This document shows, one piece after another, positions 18,095 to 61,304 of a DNA stretch of 64,000 bases; position 1 is the stretch's first letter; each line of letters starts with the position of its first letter. The notes beneath the pieces were generated by a model. It ran no database searches. It was not told where the DNA came from and was given only the letters and a program-made list of their open reading frames with translations. Location of the stretch: positions 309 to 64,308 of the forward strand of contig MHJG01000009.1 of NCBI GenBank assembly GCA_001818695.1, in the 5' to 3' direction. A program made the position numbers and the translations under genes. This DNA is from Candidatus Harrisonbacteria bacterium RIFCSPHIGHO2_02_FULL_42_16 (GTDB lineage: Bacteria; Patescibacteriota; Minisyncoccia; UBA6257; 02-FULL-45-10c).

Positions 18095-18676
18095 TTATTG
18101 CAATTGTTTTATAGTTCCGGTTTTGCTTATGGCAAAAATTTCTATATAAGGAAGAATATTCCAGCGCTGAAGATCGTTAAAAAATTCTTCCGGCAAAATT
18201 GTTTTTCCAATCCAAACGCTTTTTTGGAGCATTCTAAATTTCAGATTTTTTAATGCCTCTCTTAACCAATTACGCCCCATCTTTTTAGTTTCTGGTATAT
18301 CAAAGGCGACTATTTTAATTTCATTTGATCGTTCTATTTTATAATTTGGTTTGGAATTATATTTTTTCTTTATCATTTCACTTTTACCCCTTTCTGTAAT
18401 TTTCCAAAAAGTGGCGCCGGTTTTATTTTTTTCCTTTATAATTAAGCCAGCAGTTTTTAATTTGCATAGCAATTTACTGATTCGCTGTCTTTCTTCTAAG
18501 TTTTTAATAGTTTTTTGTAAAATTTGTTTCCTTTCCGGAATAAGAGATTTCATGCCCTTCATCCTTCGATATGTTTCGGTGTAACCAAAATAAGATATGG
18601 TATTTAAAATATCTTTGGTAATCATATCCCCAGCTTGAATTAACTTTAGAATCGTTAATGTTATATCGCCTTTCAT
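18095..18676 (-). CDS. hypothetical DNA-binding protein: N-terminal winged-helix, C-terminal Cas2/VapD-like motif (tentative, PaaX-like architecture)
   Basis: 193 aa. The C-terminal KIVAFDIPETKKMGRNWLREALKNLKFRMLQKSVWIGK resembles the Cas2 core (YDI...RR..L...G.R.Q.SVF). The gene is flanked by the two palindromes. Confidence 0.45.
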   Translation of the reverse strand: MKGDITLTILKLIQAGDMITKDILNTISYFGYTETYRRMKGMKSLIPERKQILQKTIKNLEERQRISKLLCKLKTAGLIIKEKNKTGATFWKITERGKSEMIKKKYNSKPNYKIERSNEIKIVAFDIPETKKMGRNWLREALKNLKFRMLQKSVWIGKTILPEEFFNDLQRWNILPYIEIFAISKTGTIKQLQ

Positions 18677-34054: not shown

Positions 34055-34112
34055 TCCCGCTTGGCGGGATTTTTTATTGCGTAAAATTAAGACGGGTATT
34101 ATAGTAAGATTA

Positions 34113-35378
34113 ATGAAATTTTTCGCTGACCTGCATATTCATTCTAAATACTCCCGCGCGGTTTCCAAGAGCATGGTTCTTGAAGAATTAGACCGCTGGG
34201 CGGATGATAAGGGAATTTTGGTAATGGGTACCGGTGATTTTACTCATCCGGCTTGGTTTAAGGAATTAAAACAGAAATTGGAACTGGCCGAGCCGGGGCT
34301 TTTTAAGCTAAAAAAGAAATTTAAATTGAAAACAATAAAAGGCACTTTTGCGGAAACCCGTTTTATGCTGACGGTGGAAATTTCCTGCATTTATACCCGC
34401 GGCGGCAGGGGGCGACGCGTGCATCATATTGTTTTTGCGCCGGATATTGAGACAGCAGAAAAAATCAACACCCAGCTTTCTTGGATTGGCAATTTGGCTT
34501 CGGACGGCCGTCCGATAATCGGTCTTGATTCCGAAGAGCTGGCTAAAATTGTTTTTAATGCTAATCCGCGTGCGGTTATTGTTCCGGCGCACGTCTGGAC
34601 GCCGTGGTTTTCGGTATTCGGCTCAATGTCCGGATTTGATTCGTTGGAAGAATGTTTCGGGGAATACGCCAAGAATATCTTTGCTATTGAAACCGGGCTT
34701 TCTTCTGACCCGCAGATGAATTGGCGGGTGAAAAGTTTGGATAAAATCGCTTTAATTTCCAATTCGGATTCTCATAGCTTGCAGCGCATCGGACGGGAGG
34801 CGAATGTTTTTGACACGGAATTATCTTATTCAGGAATTATGGACGCAATAAAATCACGCAATCCTAAAAAATTTTTAAATACCATAGAATTTTTTCCGGA
34901 AGAAGGAAAGTATCATTATGACGGGCATCGGGCTTGCGGCGTGGTGATGCCACCGAAAGAAAGCAAAAAGTTGAAAGATATATGTCCAAAGTGTGAAAAA
35001 AAGATGACACTTGGGGTAGTTTATCGAGTGGATCAACTTGCTGATTCTAAGAGGCCGGAAGGATATCAAGACCCAAAAAGAGTTCCCTATAAAAATTTAG
35101 TAACTTTGGATTCTATAATTGGAGAAGCGTTGGATGTCGGAAAGGCGGCGAAATCGGTGATGAAAGAATATGAAAAATTAATTAAGAATTTTAAGTCCGA
35201 ATTTAATATTTTGCTTAATGCTTCGGTTAAGGAAATTGCGCTTGCGTCCAAGCCGGAAATTGCCGAAGGGGTGGCAAGGGTGCGAGGCGGAAAATTAACC
35301 ATTAAGCCCGGCTATGACGGCGAGTTTGGCGTAATTAAGATATTTTCTGACGAAGACAGGAAAAAAATAGGCAGCTAA
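34113..35378 (+). CDS. PHP-domain nuclease, endonuclease Q (EndoQ)/TIGR00375-like
   Basis: ADLHIHSKYSRAVSK, GTGDFTHP, RRVHHIVFAP, PAHVWTPW, SNSDSHS...IGREANVF, and a zinc ribbon CPKCEKK, all colinear with the archaeal EndoQ motifs as I recall them. Confidence 0.55.
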   Translation: MKFFADLHIHSKYSRAVSKSMVLEELDRWADDKGILVMGTGDFTHPAWFKELKQKLELAEPGLFKLKKKFKLKTIKGTFAETRFMLTVEISCIYTRGGRGRRVHHIVFAPDIETAEKINTQLSWIGNLASDGRPIIGLDSEELAKIVFNANPRAVIVPAHVWTPWFSVFGSMSGFDSLEECFGEYAKNIFAIETGLSSDPQMNWRVKSLDKIALISNSDSHSLQRIGREANVFDTELSYSGIMDAIKSRNPKKFLNTIEFFPEEGKYHYDGHRACGVVMPPKESKKLKDICPKCEKKMTLGVVYRVDQLADSKRPEGYQDPKRVPYKNLVTLDSIIGEALDVGKAAKSVMKEYEKLIKNFKSEFNILLNASVKEIALASKPEIAEGVARVRGGKLTIKPGYDGEFGVIKIFSDEDRKKIGS

Positions 35379-35388
35379 AACGTGTTTT

Positions 35389-38300
35389 TTAGATTTTTTT
35401 GACCCCAATCCAAATTGGCTCTTCGTTAAGTTTTGAATTTAATTCCGCGTCAAATTTTCCGGTTTTTTTAAATTCAATTGATTTTGCGCCCACTTCTTTT
35501 TTAAGAAAATTCGCATTTTTTTCCAGCGTGGTCTTATACGCCTGGGTATCAATCATTAGCGCGATGGTGTCTTTGGGAATATAATTCGCGTCATGCCTGA
35601 GGCCCTGCACCATTCGTGCCAATTCTCTTAACAGTCCCTCTTCCTGAAGTTCGGGCGTAATTTTAAAATCCAGATTAACTTCATTTTTAATAACCATATT
35701 CCAATTAACTTTTTTTACGTTCACTTCATTTTTTATAACTTCTATCAATTCCGTGTCTCTTGCGTCAATTTTTGAACTTTTAATTTCCAGTGTTTGAAGC
35801 GGCTGGCGGACTTTAACGCCTTTTTCAGCGCGGAGCGCTAAGGCCAGGCCGGAAATTCGCCTAACTTCCTCCATTTTTTCCAAAAGCGAATAATCCATTT
35901 CTTTTTCATCGGCTTTGGGCCAGGCATCTAAATGTACCGAGTTTTTAATTTGCTGATTTTTATTTTTTGTTAAAGAAAGATAAAGAGCTTCAGCAAAGAA
36001 CGGCGTGAACGGAGCGATTAATTTGCTCAAAACAAAAAGCGAATAATAAAGGGTTTCGGAAGCCGATTTAAAGTCATTTTTATTTTTCGGTTTCTGCAAT
36101 CGGCTTCGGGAGCGCCGGATATACCACCTAGAAAGGTCGTCTACGAAGATTTCAATTGACTTGGCAGAGCCGCTAATGTCGTATTTTTCTAAATTTTCGG
36201 TTGCGTCCGCGGCGGTTTTATTAAGTTTTGATATAATCCAGCGGTCTAAAATATTTGTGCTTGGAGTCGGAAGCCGGGAGTTAGAAGTTTTTTCCGCGTA
36301 GGTATTCCAGAATACGAATGAATTATAAATAATCATTATAAATTTTCGCAAGGTTTTTCCCAAATCTAATTCGTCAAACACTTTCGGTTCTCCCGGAATC
36401 GTTTGGGTATAAAAATACCAGCGCAGGGTGTCTGCTCCGTATTTGTCCATCATTTCCCGCGGATTTATTGCATTACCTCTGGATTTAGACATTTTTTTTC
36501 CGAATTTGTCCAAAATATGGCCTTGAGTAACCACATTTAAATAGGGCGTGTTTTTTTTCAAAAGAGTGGCAATCGCCAGCAGGGAGTAGAACCAGCCGCG
36601 AGTTTGGTCGATTCCTTCGCTGATATAATCTGCCGGAAAAGCGAGCTGCTTATCAATTAAATCTTTATTTTCAAATGGGTAATGCCATTGGGCGTAGGGC
36701 ATGGCGCCGGAATCAAACCAGATATCGGCAACCTCTTTGACCCTTATCATTTTTCCGTCGCATTTAGCGCATTTTAAATGAATTTTATCCATATAGGGCC
36801 TATGTAAATCTAATTCTCCAACAGGATTATACGGCCAGTTATGCAATTCGGTTTTTTTAGCTATGCCATTAACTTTTATATAATTTAGCTTTAAAATTTC
36901 TTCATTGGATAATCCCCGCATCGCTCCTTCCAAAACCCAAAGCGGGTCGCCATGACTGACAATCAAAATATTTTTTCCATTATAACGGGAATTGATGTCT
37001 ATAATCGCTTCCAGCATTCTTTTTTTCACTTCATTTAAATTTTCTCCGCCCGGACAAATTTTAGTAAAGCGTTCCAGGTCGTTTTTGTGAAACTTATGGT
37101 GTTCTTCAACCGGGCGCCAATTAAAAATTCCGCAGTTTATTTCCGAAAGCCGTTTATCTATTATTACTCTGGATTTTGTGATTTTGGCGGCTATTTTTGC
37201 GGTTTCTTTGGTGCGGTTATACGGGGAAGCAAAAATAAAATCCAGTTTTTTATTGCCAAGCTCCTTTTTTAAATTTATAGCCGCCGATTCCGCGTTTTTT
37301 TTGCCTTTTATGGTAAGCCGGGAAATGTTTTTTCCGTGTTCCGGTCCGGAGGCGATAAGGTTGTTTAAATTATGTTCCGCTTCTCCATGCCGAAGTAGCC
37401 AAAAATTATTTTGGGAATATCTTAATTTGTCCAAATCCTCCAAACTTCCGATTACTTCCGTATGTCCACACTGTTCTTTTGTTCGCATGGGCGCGTTCGC
37501 ATTTCGCGAGGCCTTAGCCGAGCGAGCGCCATTCGCGTGCTGCCAGATTGGCAACGGCGTGCCCCAATAGCGATTTCTGGAAATTGACCAGTCCTTTACT
37601 TCCTTAAGCCATTCGCCGAACCGCCCCTGTTTTATATGTTCCGGAACCCAGTTAATTTTTTTGCCGTTGGCAATGATTTCATCGCGAAGCTTGCTCATTT
37701 CTATAAACCAGGAAAATTTCGCCATATAAAGAAGAGGGGTGTCGCATCGCCAGCAGAACGGATATTCGTGTTCATAACTGCCCGCTTTTAAAAGCGCTTT
37801 GGTTTTTTCTAAATGGCTGACAATATCCCGGTCGGCTGTTTTGGCCGGTTTGCCGGCTCCGGGCAAACCCTTTGCAACCATACCCCTGTCATCTACTGTA
37901 ATTGGGATATCATTAATTTTTAACTTTTCGCTTTTAACGCTTAATACTTCCTGCATAAGTTTCATATCGTTTTCGCCGAAAGCCGGAGCGATATGTACCA
38001 AGCCGGTGCCTTCTTCAGTAGAAACGAAGTCGGCGCCGCATACTTTAAAAAATTTGCTGTTTTTTTGCCAAGCCCCTTTTACGTTAAATAGCTGTTTATA
38101 TTTTAAGCCGATTAGTTTTTTTCCGGACATTTTTTCAATCACTTCATATTTAACATTATCTATTGTCGGCGGAGCGTTATATGACCACAAATATTCATTG
38201 CCTATCTTATATTTGGTATAGGTAAGCTTCGGATTAACCGCAATAGCGACATTTGCCGGCAAAGTCCACGGCGTGGTGGTCCAAATCAAAAGGTATTCAT

Positions 38301-38991
38301 TACCTTTTGATTTGCCCGCCGAAGCTTTAGTGAGGGAGGGTTTTAATTCAAATTTTACATATACTGACGGGTCTTTCACCTTATGATACGCGCCAGGCAT
38401 TCCAAGTTCGTGGCTGGAAAGAGGCGTTTGGCAGCGGGTGCAGTAGGGAACAATTTTAAATGATTGGGTTAGCAGGCCGCGCTTGGCGATTTCTTTGAAA
38501 ATCCACCACAAACTTTCTATATAATCTGGCTTATAAGTAATATAAGGATTTTTTAAGTCCAGCCAAAAGCCGATTCGGTCCGTAAATTTTTCCCATTCGT
38601 CCTGATATTTCCAAACCGACGCCTTGGCTTTTTCATTGAATTCCGCGATGCCGAATTTTTCAATTTCTTGTTTATTTTTCAAACCCAGCTCTTTTTCCAC
38701 CTCAATTTCTACCGGCAATCCTTGCGTGTCCCAGCCGGCTTTCCGGCGGACAAAAAATCCGCGCATGGTTTTATACCGGCAAATAATATCTTTAAAGGCG
38801 CGGCCTTCCGCGTGGCCCATGTGCGGCTGGCCGTTGGCTGTCGGTGGCCCTTCAAAAAACCTGAATACTTTCCGCGTTAATCCGCGCATATCCGCAGTTT
38901 GAGTTTTCTCAAAAATCTTATTTTCCTTCCAGAATTTAAGGACTTTTTCCTCTATCTCCGGCAATTTAAATTCTTTAAGCTTTTGTAACAT
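35389..38991 (-). CDS. ileS: isoleucyl-tRNA synthetase (type 2) with an in-frame histidine-phosphatase (PGAM-like) domain insertion
   Basis: HMGH (PHMGHAEGRA), CP1 editing domain, KMSKS (KMSKSRGN), anticodon-binding C-terminus. 1200 aa. Insert of about 237 aa lies between RYWGTPLPIWQHANG and ELDLHRPYMD. Confidence 0.9.
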   Translation of the reverse strand: MLQKLKEFKLPEIEEKVLKFWKENKIFEKTQTADMRGLTRKVFRFFEGPPTANGQPHMGHAEGRAFKDIICRYKTMRGFFVRRKAGWDTQGLPVEIEVEKELGLKNKQEIEKFGIAEFNEKAKASVWKYQDEWEKFTDRIGFWLDLKNPYITYKPDYIESLWWIFKEIAKRGLLTQSFKIVPYCTRCQTPLSSHELGMPGAYHKVKDPSVYVKFELKPSLTKASAGKSKGNEYLLIWTTTPWTLPANVAIAVNPKLTYTKYKIGNEYLWSYNAPPTIDNVKYEVIEKMSGKKLIGLKYKQLFNVKGAWQKNSKFFKVCGADFVSTEEGTGLVHIAPAFGENDMKLMQEVLSVKSEKLKINDIPITVDDRGMVAKGLPGAGKPAKTADRDIVSHLEKTKALLKAGSYEHEYPFCWRCDTPLLYMAKFSWFIEMSKLRDEIIANGKKINWVPEHIKQGRFGEWLKEVKDWSISRNRYWGTPLPIWQHANGARSAKASRNANAPMRTKEQCGHTEVIGSLEDLDKLRYSQNNFWLLRHGEAEHNLNNLIASGPEHGKNISRLTIKGKKNAESAAINLKKELGNKKLDFIFASPYNRTKETAKIAAKITKSRVIIDKRLSEINCGIFNWRPVEEHHKFHKNDLERFTKICPGGENLNEVKKRMLEAIIDINSRYNGKNILIVSHGDPLWVLEGAMRGLSNEEILKLNYIKVNGIAKKTELHNWPYNPVGELDLHRPYMDKIHLKCAKCDGKMIRVKEVADIWFDSGAMPYAQWHYPFENKDLIDKQLAFPADYISEGIDQTRGWFYSLLAIATLLKKNTPYLNVVTQGHILDKFGKKMSKSRGNAINPREMMDKYGADTLRWYFYTQTIPGEPKVFDELDLGKTLRKFIMIIYNSFVFWNTYAEKTSNSRLPTPSTNILDRWIISKLNKTAADATENLEKYDISGSAKSIEIFVDDLSRWYIRRSRSRLQKPKNKNDFKSASETLYYSLFVLSKLIAPFTPFFAEALYLSLTKNKNQQIKNSVHLDAWPKADEKEMDYSLLEKMEEVRRISGLALALRAEKGVKVRQPLQTLEIKSSKIDARDTELIEVIKNEVNVKKVNWNMVIKNEVNLDFKITPELQEEGLLRELARMVQGLRHDANYIPKDTIALMIDTQAYKTTLEKNANFLKKEVGAKSIEFKKTGKFDAELNSKLNEEPIWIGVKKI

Positions 38992-39376: not shown

Positions 39377-39682
39377 CTAATCAACTGTAAATAATCCCAT
39401 ATCTTCTTGTGATACTTTTCCGATGACAAGGCCTAAAGAGTTATCCCTCTCCAAATATTTATCAAGAGCTTCGTAGGATTTGCTGTAGGCAATTAAATAT
39501 TGGTATTTTTCTTCTTTCAAAAGAACTTCATACCAGCCAGTATGTTTAAAGTTTTTAAGTTTTTTGTATACTTGTTTGGATTTTCTTTGTCTTGATTGCG
39601 CGGATTCTTTTGGGTTCCACCGAAGCACAAAAACATCGGCTTCTCCGGTCGCATATCTTACTCTAACTCTTTTTTCTTTCAT
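39377..39682 (-). CDS. small basic hypothetical protein (about 101 aa)
   Basis: MKEKRVRVRYATGEADVFVLRWNPK... SD AGAGGGGGT. Own terminator at 39336-39362. Confidence 0.4.
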   Translation of the reverse strand: MKEKRVRVRYATGEADVFVLRWNPKESAQSRQRKSKQVYKKLKNFKHTGWYEVLLKEEKYQYLIAYSKSYEALDKYLERDNSLGLVIGKVSQEDMGLFTVD

Positions 39683-39791
39683 TTTTACCCCCTCTTTCGA
39701 AATTAATAGCAAAGACCTAATTTAATAATAAGGCAGATATTATTTTTGTCAAATAAAAACCGCTCTCATGGAAGCGGCGTTAAATATTACT

Positions 39792-40105: not shown

Positions 40106-41716
40106 CTACATTTTCTTCGGCTTGCTGATGCCGAGGATGCTAAATAGATTTTCCAGCGCGATTTTTGTCGCGGAAACGAGCGCGAGGCGCGCTTGAGCTG
40201 TCTCTGGCTCGGCATCAATAACCCGTTCTTTTTCATAAAAGTTATGGAATGAACGCGCCAGCCGGGCGGCGTATTCTGTTAACCGATGCACTTGGTAATC
40301 TTTCACGGTTTGCGCCAAAACATCCGGAAATTTCATCAATTCCAGCATAAGCTTAATTTCAGTGATAGAATTTAGCATTTTTAAATTATTATTTGTCGCT
40401 TGTCGCTTGTCGCTTGTCGCTTTTCGTAAGATGTGTAAACATCTTACGAAAGCGTACTGAACATAATAAACCGGATTTTTCTGCGAACGTTCTTTTGCCA
40501 AATCCATATCAAAATCCATATGCGTGTCCAAAGAGTGCATTAAAAAGAAAAATCTGGCGGCATCCAAACCGACTTCTTTTAGCAAATCATCCAGCGTTAC
40601 AAATTCACCGGCGCGCTTGGACATCTTCACTTCTTTTCCTTTGCTTATCAGCCGCACTAATTGGGTAATTAAAATTTTAAGCCGTTTCGGTTTTACGCCC
40701 AGCGCTCTAATGCCGCTTTCCATTCGCGCTTTATAGCCGTGGTGGTCTGCTCCCCAGATATCAATCGCCAAATCAAATTTTCTTTTTAAAAATTTATCGT
40801 AATGATAAGCCAAATCCGCTAAAAAATAAGTCGGATTGCCGTCGGATTTTATCAAAACAGCATCTTTTAGCCACATAGCCCCATCTTTTTCATAAACCAC
40901 CTTTTTTCCCTTGAGAAATTTTAATGTTTTTTTGAGCTCTCCTTTTTTATGTAAATTTTTATCTTCCGAAAACCAAATATCGTGCTTGATGCCCGCATTT
41001 TTAAGAGATTTTTTTATTTCTTTAAATAAAATTTTAGCCGCTTCTTTTCCGATTTTTTCGCCATCGTAATTTTTTACTTTTAACTTTAAACTTTTAACTA
41101 AGTCCTTGACGTATTCTCCTTTATAATACTCATCTTTCCAGGGAATTTTTCCTTCAGCCGCCAAAATGCTTTCTCCCAAGAGCTTGATTTGATTGCCGGC
41201 ATCGTTAATATAGTATTCTCGCGTTACTTTATGGCCGGAATTTTCTAATACATTCGCCAGAACATCGCCATAAAATCCGGCGCGGCCGTTGGCCATAGTC
41301 AGCGGACCGGTTGGGTTGGCGGAAACGAATTCAAGGTTTATTGTTCGATGTTTGGTGTTTGGTGTTTGGTGTTTTAAACTGCCATATTTATTTTTTTGTT
41401 TTAGTATTGCTTTCAGTTCATTCTGCAGAATTTCCGGTTTCAGCCAAAAATTTACGAAACCCGGCGACACCGCTTCGATTTTAGCAAAAATCGATTTTGA
41501 GCTTGTTGGGGGGCTACTTAATTTTGATGCTATTTCTTTTGCGATTTCAAACGGCGTCTTTCCCGCCATCCCCGAAGAAGCTTTGTTTGTCGGGGTAAAC
41601 TTAAAAGCCATATTTGTAGAATAGTGTCCAAAATTTTCCTTTTCGGAAGCAAAAACTTCAATACCTATTTTTTCTTTAATTGCTTTTTGAAGCTGGTTTT
41701 TGATTTGCTCAATCAT
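40106..41716 (-). CDS. argS: arginyl-tRNA synthetase
   Basis: ArgRS N-terminal add-on domain, catalytic core SANPTGPL(TMAN)GR in place of HIGH, KMSKR, DALR anticodon-binding domain. Confidence 0.9.
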   Translation of the reverse strand: MIEQIKNQLQKAIKEKIGIEVFASEKENFGHYSTNMAFKFTPTNKASSGMAGKTPFEIAKEIASKLSSPPTSSKSIFAKIEAVSPGFVNFWLKPEILQNELKAILKQKNKYGSLKHQTPNTKHRTINLEFVSANPTGPLTMANGRAGFYGDVLANVLENSGHKVTREYYINDAGNQIKLLGESILAAEGKIPWKDEYYKGEYVKDLVKSLKLKVKNYDGEKIGKEAAKILFKEIKKSLKNAGIKHDIWFSEDKNLHKKGELKKTLKFLKGKKVVYEKDGAMWLKDAVLIKSDGNPTYFLADLAYHYDKFLKRKFDLAIDIWGADHHGYKARMESGIRALGVKPKRLKILITQLVRLISKGKEVKMSKRAGEFVTLDDLLKEVGLDAARFFFLMHSLDTHMDFDMDLAKERSQKNPVYYVQYAFVRCLHILRKATSDKRQATNNNLKMLNSITEIKLMLELMKFPDVLAQTVKDYQVHRLTEYAARLARSFHNFYEKERVIDAEPETAQARLALVSATKIALENLFSILGISKPKKM

Positions 41717-47639: not shown

Positions 47640-48302
47640 TTATTCGAGCGACGTTCGTTTTTTTAGTTTTTCAAAATCGTAGAGGATAAATATGGCTAAA
47701 ATTGTCAGGAAGATAGTCGGAATAACCGATGGTTCATATCTGATTATAAGGGAATTGAAGAAAGCATGCAAGGCCGTAGCCAGTGCAAAACCTGTTAATA
47801 ATAGCCATTTTTTATTCAATGACATGGCTTTTGCCCAGTAATATCCCAATAAGCCGGAGCTTAGGGTATGAAGGAGGGTTGCTCCTATGAATCTTAAGGT
47901 GGTGGTCTCAAATGCCAGCGAACCGGTTTTAACAGCGGCGGCGACATTTTCCACGGCGGCAAAGCCCAAAGCGGCGACTATCATATAAATCATTGCGTCC
48001 ACCGGCTCGTCAAAGTCCTTTGGGTGTTTGCCGATTACCAGCCGCGCCGCCCCGAATTTAAAAAATTCTTCAATGCCCGCCAAAACTATAAAAGAAATAA
48101 AGCTGTATTTTATTATGCCGTTAAAATTAGCCCAGTCGTTAAATAAAATCTGAACCTGGAGAACGATAAAGGTGCTTAGGGCTCCGGCTAAGAAGACCTC
48201 AAAAAGAAGTTTTTTCGGCTCTGGATGCGGGTCTTCTTCCAAATAAAAAATCAGCCAAGCAAATGACGGCAGAAGGCCAAGTATGAGAGGGAGAGTTACC
48301 AT
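47640..48302 (-). CDS. PrsW-family intramembrane metalloprotease (M82-like)
   Basis: EExxK (IEEFFK), FxxxE (FAAVE) and HxxxN (HAFFN) motifs within TM helices. Confidence 0.55.
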   Translation of the reverse strand: MVTLPLILGLLPSFAWLIFYLEEDPHPEPKKLLFEVFLAGALSTFIVLQVQILFNDWANFNGIIKYSFISFIVLAGIEEFFKFGAARLVIGKHPKDFDEPVDAMIYMIVAALGFAAVENVAAAVKTGSLAFETTTLRFIGATLLHTLSSGLLGYYWAKAMSLNKKWLLLTGFALATALHAFFNSLIIRYEPSVIPTIFLTILAIFILYDFEKLKKRTSLE

Positions 48303-50437
48303 TTTTCTATCATTAAAAATTCTTTATTTTTATTCGGCAGGTTTTGATAAATTTCTTCCGTAAGATGCGGCATAAACGGATGGAGCATTTTTATGACTTC
48401 TAAAAGCGCGTTATTCAAAACTATTTTTACTTCTTCGTCATTTCGCCCCTTGCTTGATTCAATATATTTATCCGCGAATTCATGCCAGACAAAATCATAT
48501 AAAGAATGAAGCGCTTGTCCGAATTCATAAGTGTCAACTTGTTTAGAAACCTGTTTTTTAGTTGTATTAAGTTTTTTAATAAATTCTTTATCTTCATCAA
48601 ACGCTGATTTGCTCGGATTGCCGCGCTGATTTTCGCCGATATTTTTTCCGCGTGTATCCGCATTTGAGTCCGTGTTAATCTGCGAAGGTTTATTCATTAG
48701 AATAAATCTGGCAACATTCCATACCTTATTCGCGAATTTTTTTCCCGCTATAACCGCATTTTCATCCCAGTGGATATCTTGATTGCCCATGGCCTGCCAG
48801 ATTAAGCCGAAACGGGTGGCATCCGCTCCGTATTTTTCAATTAAAATCATCGGGTCAATGCCGGTGCCGAGCGACTTGGACATCCGTTTGCCGTCTTTGG
48901 TGAGAATGGTGCCGTGGATAATTACATCGGAGAACGGTTTTTGTCCCGTGAATTCTAAGCCGGAAAAAATCATTCTGGCTACCCATAAATTTATAATATC
49001 TCGGGCGGTGGAAATGACTTGGGTTGGATAAAATTCTTTTAAATCTTTGGTTTTGTCCGGCCAGCCAAGCGTGGCAAACGGCCAAAGCGCGGATGAAAAC
49101 CAGGTATCCAAAACATCTGTTTCTCCTTCAAGCGGAATTTTGTGTCCCCACCATATTTGGCGGGAAACATTCCAGTCGCGGATATTTTCCAGCCAGCTAA
49201 AATATATTTTTTCCCAATTTTTCGGATGGAATTTCACTTCGCCGCTTTTTACCGCTTTAATCGCCAGCTTCGCCAATTCGTTCATTTTTAAAAACCACTG
49301 CAAGCTCGGCTGGGGTTCAATCACGCCGTTACAGCGATAACAAACCGCGACATTGTGATTATAGTCCTCTTCCTTTTCAATTAGATTTTGGTTTTTTAAT
49401 TCTACCATTACTTTTTCGCGGCACTCTAAAACTTTCAGTCCGGCGCAAAGCTGGCCGGCTTCCGGCGCCATTTTCCCTAGCGGGCCGATTACTTTATATA
49501 CGGGCAGTTTATGTTTTTCTCCTATGCGCGCGTCCAATAAATCATGAGCCGGCGTTAATTTTACCGCGCCGGTTCCGAATTCCATGTCAATTTCTTCATC
49601 GGCGATAATCGGAATTTCGCGATTTTGAATCGGCAGTAAGACCTTTTTACCGATTAAATTTTTATACCGCTTATCTTTTGGATTAACCGCTATCGCGGAA
49701 TCGCCGAGCATCGTTTCCGGCCGAGTGGTGGCAACGATAATAAATCCTTTTTCGTTTAATAGCGGATATTTGATATGCCATAATTTACTTCTCTCCTCCT
49801 TATATTCAAGTTCCAAATCTGACAAGCTGGTTTGGCACCGGACGCACCAGTTGATTACCCGTTCGGCTTTGTAAAGCCATCCTTTTTTATAGTAACGCAG
49901 AAACGCCTCATTGACCGCTTTCTGGTATTGCTCATCCATCGTGAAACGGACGCGCGACCAATCCATAGAACAGCCGAGTTTTTTGAATTGATTTAAAATA
50001 ATGCCGCCGTATTTTTCTTTCCATTCCCAGACCTTTTCTAAAAATTTTTCCCGCCCCAAATCATGGCGAGATACATTTTGTTTTTTCAGTTCTTTTTCCA
50101 CGACATTCTGGGTGGCAATGCCGGCGTGGTCAGTGCCCGGAAGCCAGAGGGTCTTATAGCCCTCCATCCGTTTTTTCCGGATTAAAATATCCTGAATGGC
50201 CGCGTTAAGCGCGTGTCCCATATGGAGCGAGCCAGTCACATTCGGAGGCGGCACGACAATAGTATAGCTTGACACTTGTTGCTTGATGCTTGATGCCGCC
50301 GGAAGATTGTCCGGATTAAAATAGCCGGATTTTTCCCAAAGCTGATAAATTTTATCTTCTACTTCTTTCGGATTGTAGGTCTTGCTTAATTCTTTTGGCA
50401 TTGATATAATCTTAAAAGATTTTTTATTCTTTAACAA
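48296..50437 (-). CDS. valS: valyl-tRNA synthetase (short form lacking C-terminal coiled coil)
   Basis: HMGH (SLHMGHALN), KMSKS, ValRS-type N-terminus YNPKEVEDKIYQLWEKSGYF, CP1 editing domain. Confidence 0.85.
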   Translation of the reverse strand: MLKNKKSFKIISMPKELSKTYNPKEVEDKIYQLWEKSGYFNPDNLPAASSIKQQVSSYTIVVPPPNVTGSLHMGHALNAAIQDILIRKKRMEGYKTLWLPGTDHAGIATQNVVEKELKKQNVSRHDLGREKFLEKVWEWKEKYGGIILNQFKKLGCSMDWSRVRFTMDEQYQKAVNEAFLRYYKKGWLYKAERVINWCVRCQTSLSDLELEYKEERSKLWHIKYPLLNEKGFIIVATTRPETMLGDSAIAVNPKDKRYKNLIGKKVLLPIQNREIPIIADEEIDMEFGTGAVKLTPAHDLLDARIGEKHKLPVYKVIGPLGKMAPEAGQLCAGLKVLECREKVMVELKNQNLIEKEEDYNHNVAVCYRCNGVIEPQPSLQWFLKMNELAKLAIKAVKSGEVKFHPKNWEKIYFSWLENIRDWNVSRQIWWGHKIPLEGETDVLDTWFSSALWPFATLGWPDKTKDLKEFYPTQVISTARDIINLWVARMIFSGLEFTGQKPFSDVIIHGTILTKDGKRMSKSLGTGIDPMILIEKYGADATRFGLIWQAMGNQDIHWDENAVIAGKKFANKVWNVARFILMNKPSQINTDSNADTRGKNIGENQRGNPSKSAFDEDKEFIKKLNTTKKQVSKQVDTYEFGQALHSLYDFVWHEFADKYIESSKGRNDEEVKIVLNNALLEVIKMLHPFMPHLTEEIYQNLPNKNKEFLMIEKW

Positions 50438-52410: not shown

Positions 52411-52680
52411 GGAGAGCCGGATTCAAACTAACATCAATTTAGTGAGCCAATTCCCGTCCAGATTCAAGGCACGAGGAAGCGCAGTGTGCCAGTAGGCACA
52501 TAAGCGACGAGCAACGAAGAAGATGGATTGGAATTGGCTCACCCGAAGGGAAGAGAGAATTTGGCCAATTTCTTTGTCACTCCTCGTCGGGGTGCTTACT
52601 AGCACGACCCCCTCGTCGTTCCTAGAACTTGGCTTAAATTATCTCTTTTAAATTTGACGGTAGTTTGAATTCGGCTCTCC
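52411..52680. ncRNA. candidate structured non-coding RNA (unknown class) with nested inverted repeats; strand undetermined
   Basis: Outer IR GGAGAGCCGGATTCAAACTA / TAGTTTGAATTCGGCTCTCC (1 mismatch), inner IR GTGAGCCAATTCC / GGAATTGGCTCAC, hairpin GGGGTGCT-tact-AGCACGACCCC, CUUCGG tetraloop on the minus strand. GC well above background. Ends 6 nt before the eno start. Confidence 0.3.
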
Positions 52681-52685
52681 TAAAT

Positions 52686-53936
52686 ATGAAAGCCGTGATA
52701 AAAAATATTTTTGCCGAAGAAATTTTGGACTCGCGTGGCAATCCTACTTTGAGGGTGGGGGTGGCAACCGGCGCCGGAACGGGCATTTTTTCCGTTCCTT
52801 CCGGAGCGAGTACCGGCAAATACGAAGCGCTGGAAAAGCGGGACAACGACCCAGAGCGATTCCGCGGATTGGGAGTTAAAAAGGCGCTTGCCGCGATTGA
52901 AAAGGAAATCGCGCCTTGTTTGAAAGGATTTTCGGTTTTAGAACAAAAAAAAATTGACCGGGCAATGATAAAATTGGACGGCACCCCAAATAAGCGGCGC
53001 TTGGGCGGAAATGCTCTTATTGGCGTCAGTATCGCGGTTGCCAAAGCTGGAGCTTTAGCGAGCAAAAAACCGTTGTATAAATATCTGCATGATTCTTTTT
53101 TCCCGAAAGAAAAAATGGTCGCGCCGAAATTGTATATGAATTTAATCAATGGCGGCAAGCACGCGAAGAATAATCTGGCTTTTCAGGAATACTTGGTTGT
53201 TCCGCAAACCAATTTCGTAAAGGATGCGTTGAAATTCGGTTGCCGGGTTTTGGCGGAATTAAAGAAAATCGTTGTCAAGAAATATGGTAAGGCATCTTTT
53301 GAGATTGGAGACGAAGGTGGATTGGCTCCGGCAATTAGCGATGTTGAAGAGCCGTTGCGTTTATTGGCGGAGGCGGCGCGCAAGGTCGGCGGATTAAAAT
53401 GGAAATTGGCGCTGGATGTGGCCGCCACCAGTTTTTATAAAAATAAAAAATACACCATTGCCGGAAAAAAATTACCTGCGGAAAAATTACTGGAATTTTA
53501 TAAAAAAATAATAAATAAATATCCTTTACTTTCAATTGAAGACCCTTTTCAGGAGGAGGATTTTAAAAATTTTTCCAGATTTAAAAAAGAAACGGAGAAA
53601 AATGGAGTTTTTATTGTTGGCGACGACCTCACCGTTACCAATCCCAACCGTTTGCGGAAGGCAATCTTTGAGCAAAGCATCGGCGGGGGGATTATTAAGC
53701 CGAATCAGATTGGCACCCTGACCGAAACAATTGAAGCGATAAATTTAGCTAAAAAAAATAGAATTAAAATAATAGTCAGCCATCGGAGCGGCGAAACCAA
53801 TGACGATTTTATCGGGGATTTGGCGTATGCCTGCGGAGCGTTTGGGATTAAAGCCGGCGCGCCCCAGCCAAAGGAACGGCTCGCAAAATATAACCGCTTA
53901 TTGGAGATACAACGAATAACGAATGTGTACGAATAA
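52686..53936 (+). CDS. eno: enolase
   Basis: MKAVIKNIFAEEILDSRGNPT..., SGASTGKYEA, and catalytic motifs. Start taken at the internal Met at 52686. Confidence 0.9.
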   Translation: MKAVIKNIFAEEILDSRGNPTLRVGVATGAGTGIFSVPSGASTGKYEALEKRDNDPERFRGLGVKKALAAIEKEIAPCLKGFSVLEQKKIDRAMIKLDGTPNKRRLGGNALIGVSIAVAKAGALASKKPLYKYLHDSFFPKEKMVAPKLYMNLINGGKHAKNNLAFQEYLVVPQTNFVKDALKFGCRVLAELKKIVVKKYGKASFEIGDEGGLAPAISDVEEPLRLLAEAARKVGGLKWKLALDVAATSFYKNKKYTIAGKKLPAEKLLEFYKKIINKYPLLSIEDPFQEEDFKNFSRFKKETEKNGVFIVGDDLTVTNPNRLRKAIFEQSIGGGIIKPNQIGTLTETIEAINLAKKNRIKIIVSHRSGETNDDFIGDLAYACGAFGIKAGAPQPKERLAKYNRLLEIQRITNVYE

Positions 53937-54082: not shown

Positions 54083-54877
54083 ATGGCGTCAGTTGCGCAA
54101 ATAATCGCGACCATCGGGCCCGCGAGTAAAAATAAAAAAGCGATTAAAGAGATGATAAAACATCAAATGGATGCGGCGCGGCTTAATTTTTCCCACGGCA
54201 CTTATAAAGAACACGCTTATTACATAAAAACTATCCGGGCGGCCGCCAAAGAATTGAAAAGAAAGATTCTGATTATTCAGGATTTATCCGGGCCGCGGAC
54301 ACAGAGAGGCAAAGAACATTTTTTCAATAAAAAATCAAAGTCCTTGATAACCGCCAAAGATAAAAAGGATTTGCGGTTCGGATTGGAAAACGGCATTGAT
54401 TATGTCGCGATGTCTTATGTCGGCGGCGCGGAAGACATAAAATCCTTGCGGGCGCTGATGAGGTCATTTAAAAAAAATAAGCCGGTTATCGCTAAAATTG
54501 AACGGCGGGAAGCGGTAAAAAATATAGATGCCATTATTAAATCCGCGGACGCGATTATGGTGGCGCGCGGCGATTTAGGCAATGCTTTTCCGTTAGAAAA
54601 ACTGCCGTTTCTTCAGAAAATGATTATTCGGAAATGCAAAAAAGCGGAAAAGCCGGTGATTACCGCGACCCAAATGCTGCTCTCTATGGCGGAAAATCCG
54701 GAACCGACCCGCGCGGAAGTGGAGGATGTGGCGCAGGCAATTTTGGACGGTTCGGATGCAGTGATGCTTTCGGAAGAAACTGCTATCGGAAAATATCCGG
54801 CGGAAGCCGTGCGAGTGATGGAAAGGATTGTTTTGGAATCGGAAAAACACGAGCGATTTAAAATTCATAAATTATAA
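54083..54877 (+). CDS. minimal pyruvate kinase-like protein (TIM-barrel A domain only; no B-domain lid, no C-terminal domain)
   Basis: [33 protein letters not shown] motifs. Only 264 aa. Confidence 0.65.
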
Positions 54878-54880
54878 CTT

Positions 54881-56467
54881 ATGGCAAAACCAGTAGTGCT
54901 TACAATTTTAGACGGTTTCGGAATTTCTTTTGAAAAAAAAGGCAATGCCCTTGCTTTGGCAAAGACGCCGAATTTTGACGAAATCAGCGAAAATTATCCG
55001 GGCGCGCTTCTTCAGGCGTCCGGCATTGAAGTCGGGCTGGATTGGGGAGAGATGGGCAACTCGGAGGTTGGACACGCTAATATCGGTTCCGGAACAGTGG
55101 TTTATCAAAATTTGGCGCGAATCAATTCGGCGATTAAAGACAAAAGTTTTTTTGATTTTCCGGTTTGGAAAAAAGCCGTTGCCCATGCGGAGAAAAATAA
55201 TTCCGCCATCCATTTAATCGGCCTTTTATCCAACGGCGGCGTTCATTCCCATATTACCCATTTGTTTGCGATTTTGCGGGCGATTAAGAATTTGGAATTC
55301 AGCGGCAGGGTTTTTATCCATATTTTTACGGACGGCCGGGACACGGCGCCGAAATCAGCGGAAAAATTCATCGGTTTATTGGAGGAAGAAATGGGAAGAT
55401 TAAAAATCGGAAAAATCGCCAGCATTGCCGGTCGTTACTACGCGATGGACAGGGATGAAAATTGGGAGCGAACCGGAAAGGCCTATCAAATTTTGATTGG
55501 CGGCGGAGGAGAAAAAGCCGCAAGCGCGCCAGCGGCGGCAGAAAATTTCTATAAAAATGGTTTGAGCGACGAGATGTTTGAGCCGACGACAATAATAGAA
55601 AAAGAAAATCAGCCGGTGGGCGCGGTACAGGACAACGACGCGGCGATTTTCTTTAATTTCCGGCCGGACCGCGCCCGCCAGCTGACGCAAGCGTTCATTG
55701 CTCCGGAATTTGGCGGATTTAAGAGAAAAAAACTGGATAATTTGCTGTTTGTAACTTTGACCCGATATGCCGATGATTATTCAGCGGAAATTGTTTTTGA
55801 ACCGCAGTATATCGCGGAACCGCTGGCTAAAGTTATTGCCGATGCCGGAAAAACCCAGCTGCATATCGCCGAGACGGAAAAATACGCCCACATCACTTAT
55901 TTTCTGAACGGCGCTACGGAAAAGGAATTTTCCGGCGAGGTTCGGATTTTAATTCCGTCCAAAAAAGTAAAAAGTTTTGACGAACAGCCGGAAATGAGCG
56001 CGTCGGAAATAACCGAAAAAATTATAGCGGCGATAAAAAAACAAGAATATGATTTTATCGCGGTTAATTTTGCCAATGCCGATATGGTGGGGCATACCGG
56101 CAATCTGGAGGCAAGCGTGAAAGCGGTAGAATTCTTGGATGAATGCGTCGGCAGGATAAAAAACGCGGTTTTGGAAGCGGGCGGGGTTTTGGCGATTACC
56201 GCTGACCACGGCAATGCGGAAGAAATGCTTAATTTGGCAACCGGGGAGATTGACAAGGAACACTCTACCAATCCGGTGCCGTTTTGGATTGTGGGCGCGG
56301 ACAATAAAATTACCGAAGGCCAAAAAAATTCTTTTCAGACAACGCCGCAGGGGATTTTGGCGGATGTGGCGCCGACTATTTTGGAAATTATGGAGTTGCC
56401 CAAGCCGAAAGAAATGACCGGCAATAGTTTGCTGAAAGGAATGAGCCGGTGTCCCCTGCCAAAATAA
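54881..56467 (+). CDS. gpmI: 2,3-bisphosphoglycerate-independent phosphoglycerate mutase
   Basis: VLTILDGFG..., NSEVGHAN, ITADHGN and metal-binding residues of iPGM. Confidence 0.9.
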   Translation: MAKPVVLTILDGFGISFEKKGNALALAKTPNFDEISENYPGALLQASGIEVGLDWGEMGNSEVGHANIGSGTVVYQNLARINSAIKDKSFFDFPVWKKAVAHAEKNNSAIHLIGLLSNGGVHSHITHLFAILRAIKNLEFSGRVFIHIFTDGRDTAPKSAEKFIGLLEEEMGRLKIGKIASIAGRYYAMDRDENWERTGKAYQILIGGGGEKAASAPAAAENFYKNGLSDEMFEPTTIIEKENQPVGAVQDNDAAIFFNFRPDRARQLTQAFIAPEFGGFKRKKLDNLLFVTLTRYADDYSAEIVFEPQYIAEPLAKVIADAGKTQLHIAETEKYAHITYFLNGATEKEFSGEVRILIPSKKVKSFDEQPEMSASEITEKIIAAIKKQEYDFIAVNFANADMVGHTGNLEASVKAVEFLDECVGRIKNAVLEAGGVLAITADHGNAEEMLNLATGEIDKEHSTNPVPFWIVGADNKITEGQKNSFQTTPQGILADVAPTILEIMELPKPKEMTGNSLLKGMSRCPLPK

Positions 56468-61235: not shown

Positions 61236-61304
61236 AGAAAATGATATAATTAACAATGGATTATTATGCCTGTCAAATTGTGATATTGAAATTATAACAT
61301 TACG

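Follow-up and report, generated by a model that had tools for sequence, protein, structure and literature searches.

A histidine phosphatase domain nested in the CP3 subdomain of a patescibacterial isoleucyl-tRNA synthetase

What might a phosphatase be doing inside the catalytic body of an isoleucyl-tRNA synthetase (IleRS)? The question is raised by ileS, one gene of a 64,000-nucleotide stretch (hereafter the window) of contig MHJG01000009.1 from Candidatus Harrisonbacteria bacterium RIFCSPHIGHO2_02_FULL_42_16. The window is a low-G+C segment from the Patescibacteria (Candidate Phyla Radiation, CPR) that carries dnaA-dnaN, ruvABC, cell-wall genes, several aminoacyl-tRNA synthetase (aaRS) genes and a lower-glycolysis cluster. 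The accessory modules known on aaRSs are editing domains, tRNA-binding appendages, membrane anchors and signalling domains. The ileS product carries a histidine phosphatase domain (HP) nested in connective peptide 3 (CP3), and that this nested domain is real and lineage-wide is close to certain. The explanation favoured here, by a modest margin over its negation, is that the nested HP is an active, fixed partner of IleRS serving the adenylation/aminoacylation cycle. What is new is a free HP counterpart gene in front of insert-less ileS, which renders the comparative-genomic argument for a functional link unusually strong. The earlier note on this DNA knew of no phosphatase embedded in the catalytic body of an aaRS; in agreement with this, a full-text literature search found no paper describing a phosphatase-in-IleRS architecture.

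A phosphatase domain within the zinc knuckle of CP3

Judged by its score and its intact motifs, the open reading frame (ORF) encodes an intact and presumably fully functional type-2 IleRS. The NCBIfam ileS equivalog TIGR00392 scored 863.6 bits (cut-off 621.4) in a match that is split in two at residue 491, and Pfam places the halves of tRNA-synt_1 on either side of His_Phos_1, followed by Anticodon_1 and DUF5915. The parts of the synthetase, all on the minus strand, are as follows.

35389..38991, minus strand: ileS, 1200-residue type-2 IleRS with an internal phosphatase domain (ORF, TIGR00392, Pfam)
37540..38991, minus strand: IleRS N-terminal part, residues 1-484 (Rossmann half, CP1 editing domain, CP2, CP2-3 linker), aligned to 1ILE residues 3-460
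38812-38823, minus strand: HMGH, the class-I HIGH motif, residues 57-60
38257-38283, minus strand: WTTTPWTLP, CP1 editing motif (Thr-rich peptide), residues 237-245
37975-38010, minus strand: GTGLVHIAPAFG, CP1 editing motif (His/Asp), residues 328-339
37543-37572, minus strand: RYWGTPLPIW, in the CP2-3 linker
36826..37539, minus strand: extra segment, residues 485-722, within CP3, in place of Thermus IleRS residues 461-482 (22 residues; aligned by phmmer to 1ILE and 8C8U)
35389..36825, minus strand: IleRS C-terminal part, residues 723-1200 (second Rossmann half, anticodon-binding domain, DUF5915), aligned to 1ILE residues 483-821, and Pfam
36787-36813, minus strand: LDLHRPYMD of IleRS
36481-36495, minus strand: KMSKS, residues 833-837

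As the earlier note had said, the reading frame is unbroken and both KMSKS and the anticodon-binding domain follow downstream; motif positions and Pfam agree on this. The HMGH and KMSKS flanking residues are invariant among 69 homologues. In the CP1 editing domain T238-240, H333 and D342 are invariant, and the isolated editing-domain structures 1WK8 and 1UE0 are matched. An AlphaFold2 (AF2) model of the full-length protein reached a mean predicted local distance difference test score (pLDDT) of 86.7 and a predicted TM score (pTM) of 0.80. The ORF stayed below the cut-offs of the models for IleRS with an N-acetyltransferase domain (NF040702, 287.6 vs 1999 bits) and for the mupirocin-resistance enzymes MupA/MupB (NF000257/8, 769.3 and 756.1 vs 1900 bits).

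The extra segment was delimited by phmmer alignment to Thermus thermophilus IleRS (1ILE), in which residue 484 corresponds to Thermus 460 and residue 723 to Thermus 483, so that 238 residues stand where the Thermus enzyme has 22; Priestia megaterium IleRS2 (8C8U) gave the same picture. Outside the segment both type-2 enzymes align over their full length (E 4e-227 and 8e-218), sharing HIGH, KMSKS, the CP1 editing motifs, the anticodon-binding domain and the distal CxxC of the CP3 zinc knuckle. They differ in lacking the phosphatase fold, having 22 residues at this point, and in a proximal zinc pair that is CxxC rather than H...(22 aa)...C. That the short zinc-binding linker of type-2 IleRS is the point of insertion, as proposed earlier, thus holds; the bounds then given, 36817-37527, describe a real insert and correspond to residues 489-725, the true segment being residues 485-722 (36826-37539).

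The CP3 subdomain has been defined, and its zinc motif described, in the Thermus enzyme (PMC7191050), and CP3 topology varies among Thermus, S. aureus and Candida IleRS (PMC7191050). The interrupted loop lies about 40 residues past the CP2-3 linker (...SRNRYWG...), and in yeast IleRS the linker sequence RNRYWG is part of the tRNA CCA-end/reveromycin pocket (PMC7955072). Insert-less IleRS have a minimal CP3 linker (CxxC..IGSLxEL-DLHRP), and every embedded form is interrupted exactly there. The zinc ligands, and a loop between the first two of them, are placed as follows.

37537-37539, minus strand: H485, proximal zinc ligand (ligand alignment)
37471..37530, minus strand: 20-residue low-complexity GC-rich loop GARSAKASRNANAPMRTKEQ, residues 488-507, between zinc ligands 1 and 2 (62% G+C; gapped in homologues)
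37468-37470, minus strand: C508, proximal zinc ligand (ligand alignment)
36760..36771, minus strand: C741-x-x-C744, distal half of the CP3 zinc knuckle (121/121 in the alignment)

Here and below, conservation counts refer to 121 embedded sequences. The four ligands are CCCC in 82 of the 121 and HCCC in the window protein, where H485...C508 takes the place of the proximal CxxC found in most homologues.

The earlier note saw in the GC-rich patch a sign of acquisition by insertion. This reading is not upheld, because the patch is a separate disordered loop, missing from most phosphatase-bearing homologues, and the repeat search around it returned only short repeats at chance level, none significant. 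The loop, residues 488-507, is gapped in 107-119 of the 121 homologues (absent from about 117), all of which have the phosphatase; it is common only to P0001, the identical protein introduced below, and partly similar in P0095 (HAN...APMR.KE.C). AF2 predicts it to be disordered (pLDDT below 50). The loop is a secondary, lineage-private feature unrelated to the phosphatase boundary. Recent horizontal acquisition of the phosphatase was ruled out as well, since the G+C content of the domain equals that of its host gene (39% vs 41% for the whole ORF).

Pfam identifies the fold within the segment without ambiguity of family: PF00300 (His_Phos_1) matches with E 1.4e-28 and 100.3 bits (cut-off 21.7) over profile positions 1-170 of 194, at residues 530-703, which bears out the earlier assignment to branch 1 of the histidine phosphatases. 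The domain and its putative active site are laid out below.

36883..37404, minus strand: histidine phosphatase (branch 1) domain, HP, residues 530-703 (PF00300; AF2; Foldseek)
37369-37398, minus strand: LLRHGEAEHN
37387..37392, minus strand: R534-H535, RHG motif with the putative phospho-acceptor His (121/121; invariant in all architectural groups)
37213..37215, minus strand: R593, second phosphate-pocket arginine (121/121; invariant in all groups)
37141..37143, minus strand: E617, putative general acid equivalent to Glu89 of cofactor-dependent phosphoglycerate mutase (dPGM); Glu in 118 and Asp in 3 of 121
36931-36963, minus strand: IVSHGDPLWVL
36952..36954, minus strand: H680, second catalytic His in the SHGDPLW motif (121/121; invariant in all groups)

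Both motifs had been picked out from the sequence beforehand. The second His in IVSHGDPLWVL is H680, as predicted; LLRHGEAEHN is likewise present, at nucleotides 37369-37398 and not at 37381-37400. T560, G563, S589, G621, E650 and R658 are also invariant, and the catalytic residues are kept in free-standing copies of the domain as well, the position of E617 being Asp in most of these and Gln in sulfation-linked relatives. Mean pairwise identity of HP is 51%, against 49-70% for the domains of IleRS itself.

The AF2 model of the insert alone has a pLDDT of 93.7 and a pTM of 0.90, and HP keeps a pLDDT of 90-97 within the full-length model, whose confidence suggests that the predicted orientation of HP is defined. 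Foldseek returned PspA (4IJ6), PhoE (1H2E), HFP (9MMH) and CobC (6E4B) as best matches of the insert model, with a probability of 1.00 to PspA, PhoE, dPGM, CobC and TIGAR, the alpha/beta PGM-like fold. Likeness to PhoE/YhfR (1H2E, 1EBB), PspA (4IJ5/4IJ6), CobC and HFP (E 1e-12 to 1e-13, TM 0.64-0.70) extends to the R-H / R / E / H constellation and to a size of about 190 residues; the differences are an identity of 22-27%, the HP signature N-x-[FY]-F-x-x-R-H with SHGDPLW, and a position nested in or beside an aaRS. CobC, PspA and HFP are an alpha-ribazole phosphatase, a phosphoserine phosphatase and a riboflavin-pathway protein, respectively. The insert stayed below the curated cut-offs for CobC (TIGR03162, 67.3 vs 162.9 bits), PspA (NF045917, 55 vs 350), SixA (TIGR00249, 31 vs 74.5) and GpmB (NF002901, 65.1 vs 261). 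Its best NCBIfam match is to the mycobacterial RNase H/acid phosphatase (PRK07238, Rv2228c type; 74.5 bits, cut-off 326), in which a CobC-like histidine phosphatase is likewise joined to a nucleic-acid enzyme, though end to end, with another partner and with no known link to aminoacylation.

Because the catalytic residues are invariant and the fold is confidently PhoE/PspA-like, HP is very probably catalytically active. A non-catalytic HP, serving as a structural prop for part of CP3 or as a phospho-ligand sensor that regulates IleRS allosterically, is scarcely credible: some members of the superfamily are non-enzymatic, such as the TFIIIC subunit Tfc7, and roughly one homologue in three has a degenerate form of the zinc knuckle that HP interrupts, but five catalytic residues together with E650/R658 have been kept at about 50% divergence in embedded and free forms alike, and binding alone would not require nucleophile, general acid and both arginines together.

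PF00300 is also the family of phosphoglycerate mutase (PGAM), and the earlier note had called the insert PGAM-like. The term fits as to superfamily and fails in the sense of a mutase. Were HP the dPGM of the organism, it would supply a glycolytic step for which no enzyme has been detected in several shallow Parcubacteria clades (PMC7304191), and weak matches to the archaeal dPGM model NF038349 (73.7 bits) and to TIGR01258 could be cited in its favour. These matches lie far below cut-off, however (73.7 vs 225 and 45 vs 81.7 bits), HP is of the short phosphatase type (about 175 residues), and it has HGD after the second His where dPGM has HGN. Moreover, the window encodes a canonical cofactor-independent enzyme (iPGM) clustered with enolase and pyruvate kinase:

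54881..56467, plus strand: iPGM, cofactor-independent phosphoglycerate mutase (PF06415 E 8.4e-78, PF01676)
52665-53936: enolase, beside iPGM
54083-54877: pyruvate kinase, beside iPGM

The mutase function is thus contradicted for this genome and exceedingly improbable, and the reading of HP as a missing PGM was rejected.

The nested form is found well beyond the window. An independent ENA contig encodes a 100% identical protein (P0001), and the best 120 homologues, from Parcubacteria/Paceibacteria (52-66% identity, 1119-1219 residues), all have both PF00133 and PF00300. A pattern scan of GTDB species representatives, one genome per species, gave 345 matches. Almost all of the best 80 are embedded, and they come from Harrison-, Lipton-, Colwell-, Brenner-, Azam-, Ryan-, Jorgensen- and Uhrbacteria and Paceibacterota. 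The earlier view that the insert is neither a misassembly nor a fusion artefact is confirmed by the identical protein from a second assembly and by the architecture shared among more than 100 homologues. Nor is it an intein, again as proposed: Pfam gives no Hint/intein match in the ORF, the segment has a phosphatase fold, and the junctions, ...YSQNN|FW... and ...HNWPYN..., have no splicing residues.

Several irregular cases were met among these sequences. One 1087-residue IleRS fragment (P0193) has, at this CP3 site, His_Phos_1 twice in tandem (541-697 and 749-900). Two embedded loci come from bins titled 'Pacearchaeota archaeon' (L068) and 'Gammaproteobacteria' (L074), and many others from 'uncultured Candidatus Saccharibacteria'; in a neighbour-joining (NJ) tree the IleRS of L068 groups with Patescibacteria and that of L074 branches close to the main embedded clade but outside it, so these titles probably reflect mis-binning or generic names. 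JGI applies the name 'isoleucyl-tRNA synthetase' to free phosphatases of 189-202 residues (P0400, P0467), and for embedded forms NCBI uses 'class I tRNA ligase family protein', with 'isoleucyl-tRNA synthetase' also occurring in public annotation; the nested architecture has led to a transfer of annotation, a problem for IleRS and free phosphatases alike.

Free-standing copies, fusions and the link to ileS

A HMMER search with the insert recovered, besides embedded copies, free proteins of about 190 residues that are 40-47% identical to it, and the free-standing family is large (at least 1302 matches). In 3/3 contigs examined, the free HP gene is followed immediately by an insert-less ileS (949-981 residues) and preceded closely by argS; HP and ileS either overlap by 4 nt or are separated by 4 nt. 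A metagenome scan yielded 68 free-standing loci whose downstream sequence was long enough to be judged. In 47 of them ileS starts at most about 130 nt after HP, mostly with overlap, and in 3 further loci a second HP gene stands between HP and ileS, which brings the loci with HP upstream of ileS to 50/68. This adjacency is held across IleRS lineages that are only 36-60% identical to one another, and HP and ileS occur in four topologies: HP-ileS, HP-HP-ileS, ileS[HP] and ileS-Sua5::HP. The order argS-HP-ileS with overlapping genes suggests translational coupling, and gene order and conservation together make it probable that HP is functionally coupled to IleRS, as a partner and not a passenger. 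The parasitic domain tolerated in a surface loop that the earlier note had considered is disfavoured by the invariant catalytic residues, by a conservation like that of the IleRS domains and by the coupled upstream gene in sister lineages.

Among the free-standing loci, tandem HP genes before ileS were seen in L121, L138, L148 and L149, an arrangement that recalls the PspA/PspB-type pairs of the superfamily. A 'solo' subgroup, acidic to neutral, lies away from ileS (L104-L108, L111, L114, L115, L117, L119, L120, L122-L124, L128, L129 and L146) and may have diverged in function. At four of these loci (L106, L108, L115 and L129) the surroundings were inspected: three have a downstream protein of about 412 residues with, by eye, an FAD-binding-type N-terminus, two of these three also have a GTPase-like ORF, and L129 has neither.

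The synteny partner argS is present in the window too:

40106..41716, minus strand: argS (ArgRS, 536 residues), upstream of ileS (Pfam)

It stands upstream of ileS in 48 embedded-type loci, at a gap of at most 160 nt in 19, and embedded loci look as if the HP gene had left the argS-ileS gap. A scan of the window with the HP profile, including the 1.1-kb argS-ileS spacer, revealed no paralogue or remnant at E up to 10. The spacer holds a 111-residue ORF (39377-39712, minus strand) that has no Pfam match and is not an HP remnant. On the other side of ileS, at 34077-35378 on the plus strand, lies the gene of a 433-residue protein without a Pfam match, whose N-terminus, DLHIHSKYSRA, looks PHP-like. 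An Rfam search upstream of ileS matched no T-box and no other leader RNA, and a promoter/terminator scan near ileS gave about the shuffled expectation.

The relation between the adjacent and the embedded state was followed in NJ trees of the N-terminal 470 residues of IleRS and of the HP domain. Most embedded sequences, that of the window included, form one clade of 63-69 sequences. In both trees three others (L159/L162/L163) group within lineages of the adjacent type, with which their IleRS shares 72% identity and their HP 63%, compared with no more than 61% and 50%, respectively, for embedded forms. Transitions may also have occurred in L068/L079 and L054. The trees thus point to at least two transitions of architecture at the same loop. 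As to direction, adjacent to embedded and the reverse are equally parsimonious, and the IleRS and HP trees conflict for L054 and the L072 group.

HP is also joined to partners other than IleRS. It is fused to the C-terminus of ArgRS in P0203, to Sua5/YrdC in P0156 and P0216, the gene of the latter lying immediately downstream of an insert-less ileS, and to PUA_2 and ATP sulfurylase in P0179, whose gene adjoins that of a sulfotransferase. The ATP-sulfurylase/sulfation-linked branch is divergent, with Q at the position of E617, N at D682 and R at W685. A profile search with the fused HPs recovered mainly single-domain proteins and two IleRS fragments with PF00133 and PF00300, and did not recover the queries themselves.

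Each of these fusions has a setting of its own. In the locus of an ArgRS::HP gene (L172, 5001-7070), ileS is missing from an otherwise kept smpB / argS / recO / proS-like neighbourhood. In L170/L171 (3116-7179) an insert-less ileS is followed by Sua5/YrdC::HP, with a base shared between stop and start; HP replaces the usual C-terminal SUA5 domain, and genes for a CCA-adding enzyme and a tRNA-guanine transglycosylase (TGT) lie nearby. In L169 (6001-7707) the HP::PUA_2::ATP-sulfurylase gene lies in a polysaccharide-biosynthesis cluster and overlaps the gene of a sulfotransferase; in L166-L168, free HP genes stand beside sulfotransferases. No adenosine 5'-phosphosulfate (APS) kinase was found within 5-6 kb of the L166-L169 loci.

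Could HP simply be a housekeeping small-molecule phosphatase (PhoE-like, or acting on phosphoserine or a sugar phosphate) that shares the argS/ileS operon and was captured in a permissive loop for co-expression? Its top sequence and fold matches are generic (PhoE, PspA, CobC, HFP) and lie below the family cut-offs, about a quarter of the free copies are located elsewhere, unrelated functions are often mixed in bacterial operons, and CP3 is variable and tolerant of insertions (PMC7191050). Nevertheless, such capture fits poorly with an ileS adjacency kept across synthetases at 36-60% identity and in four topologies, with the repeated conversion into the same loop, with HP and ileS genes that overlap or lie a few bases apart, and with fusion partners limited to adenylate-forming enzymes; one may add that reduced CPR genomes would rarely hold 190 spare codons in an essential enzyme without selection. 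On balance this alternative is unlikely.

What the phosphatase may act on

If HP is a dedicated partner of IleRS, the following scheme would account for its two states. In sister Patescibacteria a free HP of 190 residues is encoded in front of ileS; in the clade of the window HP would have moved into the CP3 loop (argS-ileS[HP]); and in either form it would hydrolyse some phosphorylated compound that the adenylation/aminoacylation cycle either consumes or gives off as a by-product, the embedded form being held beside the synthetic site. That the substrate belongs to this cycle is an evenly balanced proposition. A nucleotide-related substrate, as the earlier note suggested, is plausible. The preferred candidate is inorganic pyrophosphate (PPi), the removal of which would pull Ile-AMP formation forward, although taken by itself it remains a doubtful choice. 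PPi is preferred because every fusion partner (IleRS, ArgRS, Sua5/TsaC and, in a divergent branch of HP, ATP sulfurylase) forms an adenylate and releases PPi; aaRSs, TsaC/Sua5 and ATP sulfurylase all make their adenylates from ATP.

A published precedent is the fusion of ATP sulfurylase with inorganic pyrophosphatase (PPase) in stramenopiles and haptophytes, where a phosphohydrolase is joined to an adenylate-forming, PPi-releasing enzyme, as here (PMC2275785). In those fusions a canonical family-I PPase is attached end to end, in contrast to a histidine phosphatase of putative specificity placed inside a catalytic domain, and the HP sequence belongs to no canonical PPase family (family I, family II or membrane PPases). 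Closer to IleRS, the NF040702 family 'ileS_w_GNAT' likewise has an extra module on a class-I aaRS whose core motifs are kept, the module being an N-acetyltransferase and not a phosphatase. The CAAD insertions of cyanobacterial IleRS, ValRS, LeuRS and GluRS are membrane anchors, and the leucine-specific domain of LeuRS is not an enzyme. To my knowledge none of the CAAD, GNAT and LeuRS domains is a phosphatase, and I know of no free, operon-linked precursor for them.

A number of observations weigh against the assignment to the adenylation cycle, and to PPi in particular. The substrate is assigned through guilt by association only. The fusions to ArgRS and Sua5 may simply stem from adjacency to ileS and so would not be independent evidence; the HPs linked to ATP sulfurylase are divergent at key pocket positions (E617Q, D682N, W685R); and related free HPs adjoin sulfotransferases, which release adenosine 3',5'-bisphosphate (pAp), not PPi. 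In 18/68 loci, free HP lies away from ileS. The classical activity of histidine phosphatases is that of a phosphomonoesterase, and we know of no branch-1 member that is a PPase.

The same neighbours may be read in another way, namely that HP acts on an adenosine 3'(2')-phosphate end, either repairing the A76 of damaged or toxin-modified tRNA (removing a phosphate, or the outer phosphate of a pyrophosphate) or hydrolysing pAp or 3'-AMP. HP is inserted after the CP2-3 linker, a segment lining the CCA-end pocket; its partners IleRS, ArgRS and Sua5/TsaC each act in tRNA metabolism; one Sua5::HP locus also encodes a CCA-adding enzyme and TGT; and the sulfotransferase product pAp is itself an adenosine 3'-phosphate. 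In addition, toxSAS toxins pyrophosphorylate tRNA 3' ends and thereby block aminoacylation. What this alternative leaves unexplained is the tie to IleRS alone, since the other class-I synthetase of the window (48296-50437) has no HP. Furthermore, the sulfation-linked relatives differ at catalytic-pocket positions, a basic surface is inconsistent among the free-standing proteins (net charge about -6 to +33), and no branch-1 member is known to us to act on RNA ends. An action at tRNA or adenosine 3' ends is less likely still than simple housekeeping. Basic charge had been considered as a sign of RNA binding, from a first value of pI 10 and net +24, and was dropped, as the ileS-adjacent copies range from about -6 to +33 in a lineage-dependent manner.

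A third possibility is that HP is a protein phosphatase, in the manner of PGAM5, SixA or Sts-1, which clears an inhibitory phosphate from IleRS, for instance one that a HipA-like kinase attaches close to the KMSKS loop. The superfamily does include phosphatases of phospho-Ser/Thr, -His and -Tyr, SixA is a weak match (31 vs 74.5 bits), CP3 interrupts the Rossmann fold close to its KMSKS-bearing second half, and HipA-family kinases inactivate GluRS, TrpRS and LysRS by phosphorylation. Yet no kinase is linked to the locus in the contexts examined, bacterial IleRS phosphorylation has no known case, and the ATP sulfurylase and Sua5 fusions would be left unexplained; this possibility is very remote.

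Returning to an HP that serves the adenylation/aminoacylation cycle, a bolder and more tentative form of it may be put forward. Paceibacteria would possess a two-enzyme unit in which an HP-fold hydrolase dedicated to adenylate-forming enzymes docks at the CP3 of IleRS, as a built-in pyrophosphatase or as a tRNA-3'-end/adenosine-3'-phosphate phosphatase, the neighbour gene having repeatedly been made an internal domain. If true, this would add a new catalytic accessory function to the aaRSs and a new activity to the histidine phosphatase superfamily. More generally, a conserved and apparently active phosphatase in the body of IleRS suggests that aminoacylation is coupled to a chemical reaction hitherto overlooked, for which product removal, substrate repair and regulation are candidates, and it may have a bearing on the handling of pyrophosphate or damaged tRNA in ultra-small symbionts. 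Hundreds of species in a major class of uncultivated bacteria have IleRS-HP, and the 'Rosetta stone' of the neighbouring gene backs the link. The case also offers a natural example of a neighbour gene becoming an internal domain, more than once, at one permissive loop.

Other observations in the window

The second class-Ia synthetase of the window (48296-50437, minus strand; 713 residues) has a tRNA-synt_1 domain, a weak match to the LeuRS editing domain and a truncated Anticodon_1, and is unusually short for LeuRS or ValRS. A 193-residue protein (18095-18676, minus strand) has a PaaX-middle/Cas2-like domain, and no CRISPR array was noticed nearby. Finally, a 924-residue protein (58539-61313, minus strand) combines a pretoxin-HINT/intein-like segment at residues 173-297 with C-terminal CarboxypepD_reg domains and is possibly a surface protein of the polymorphic-toxin type.

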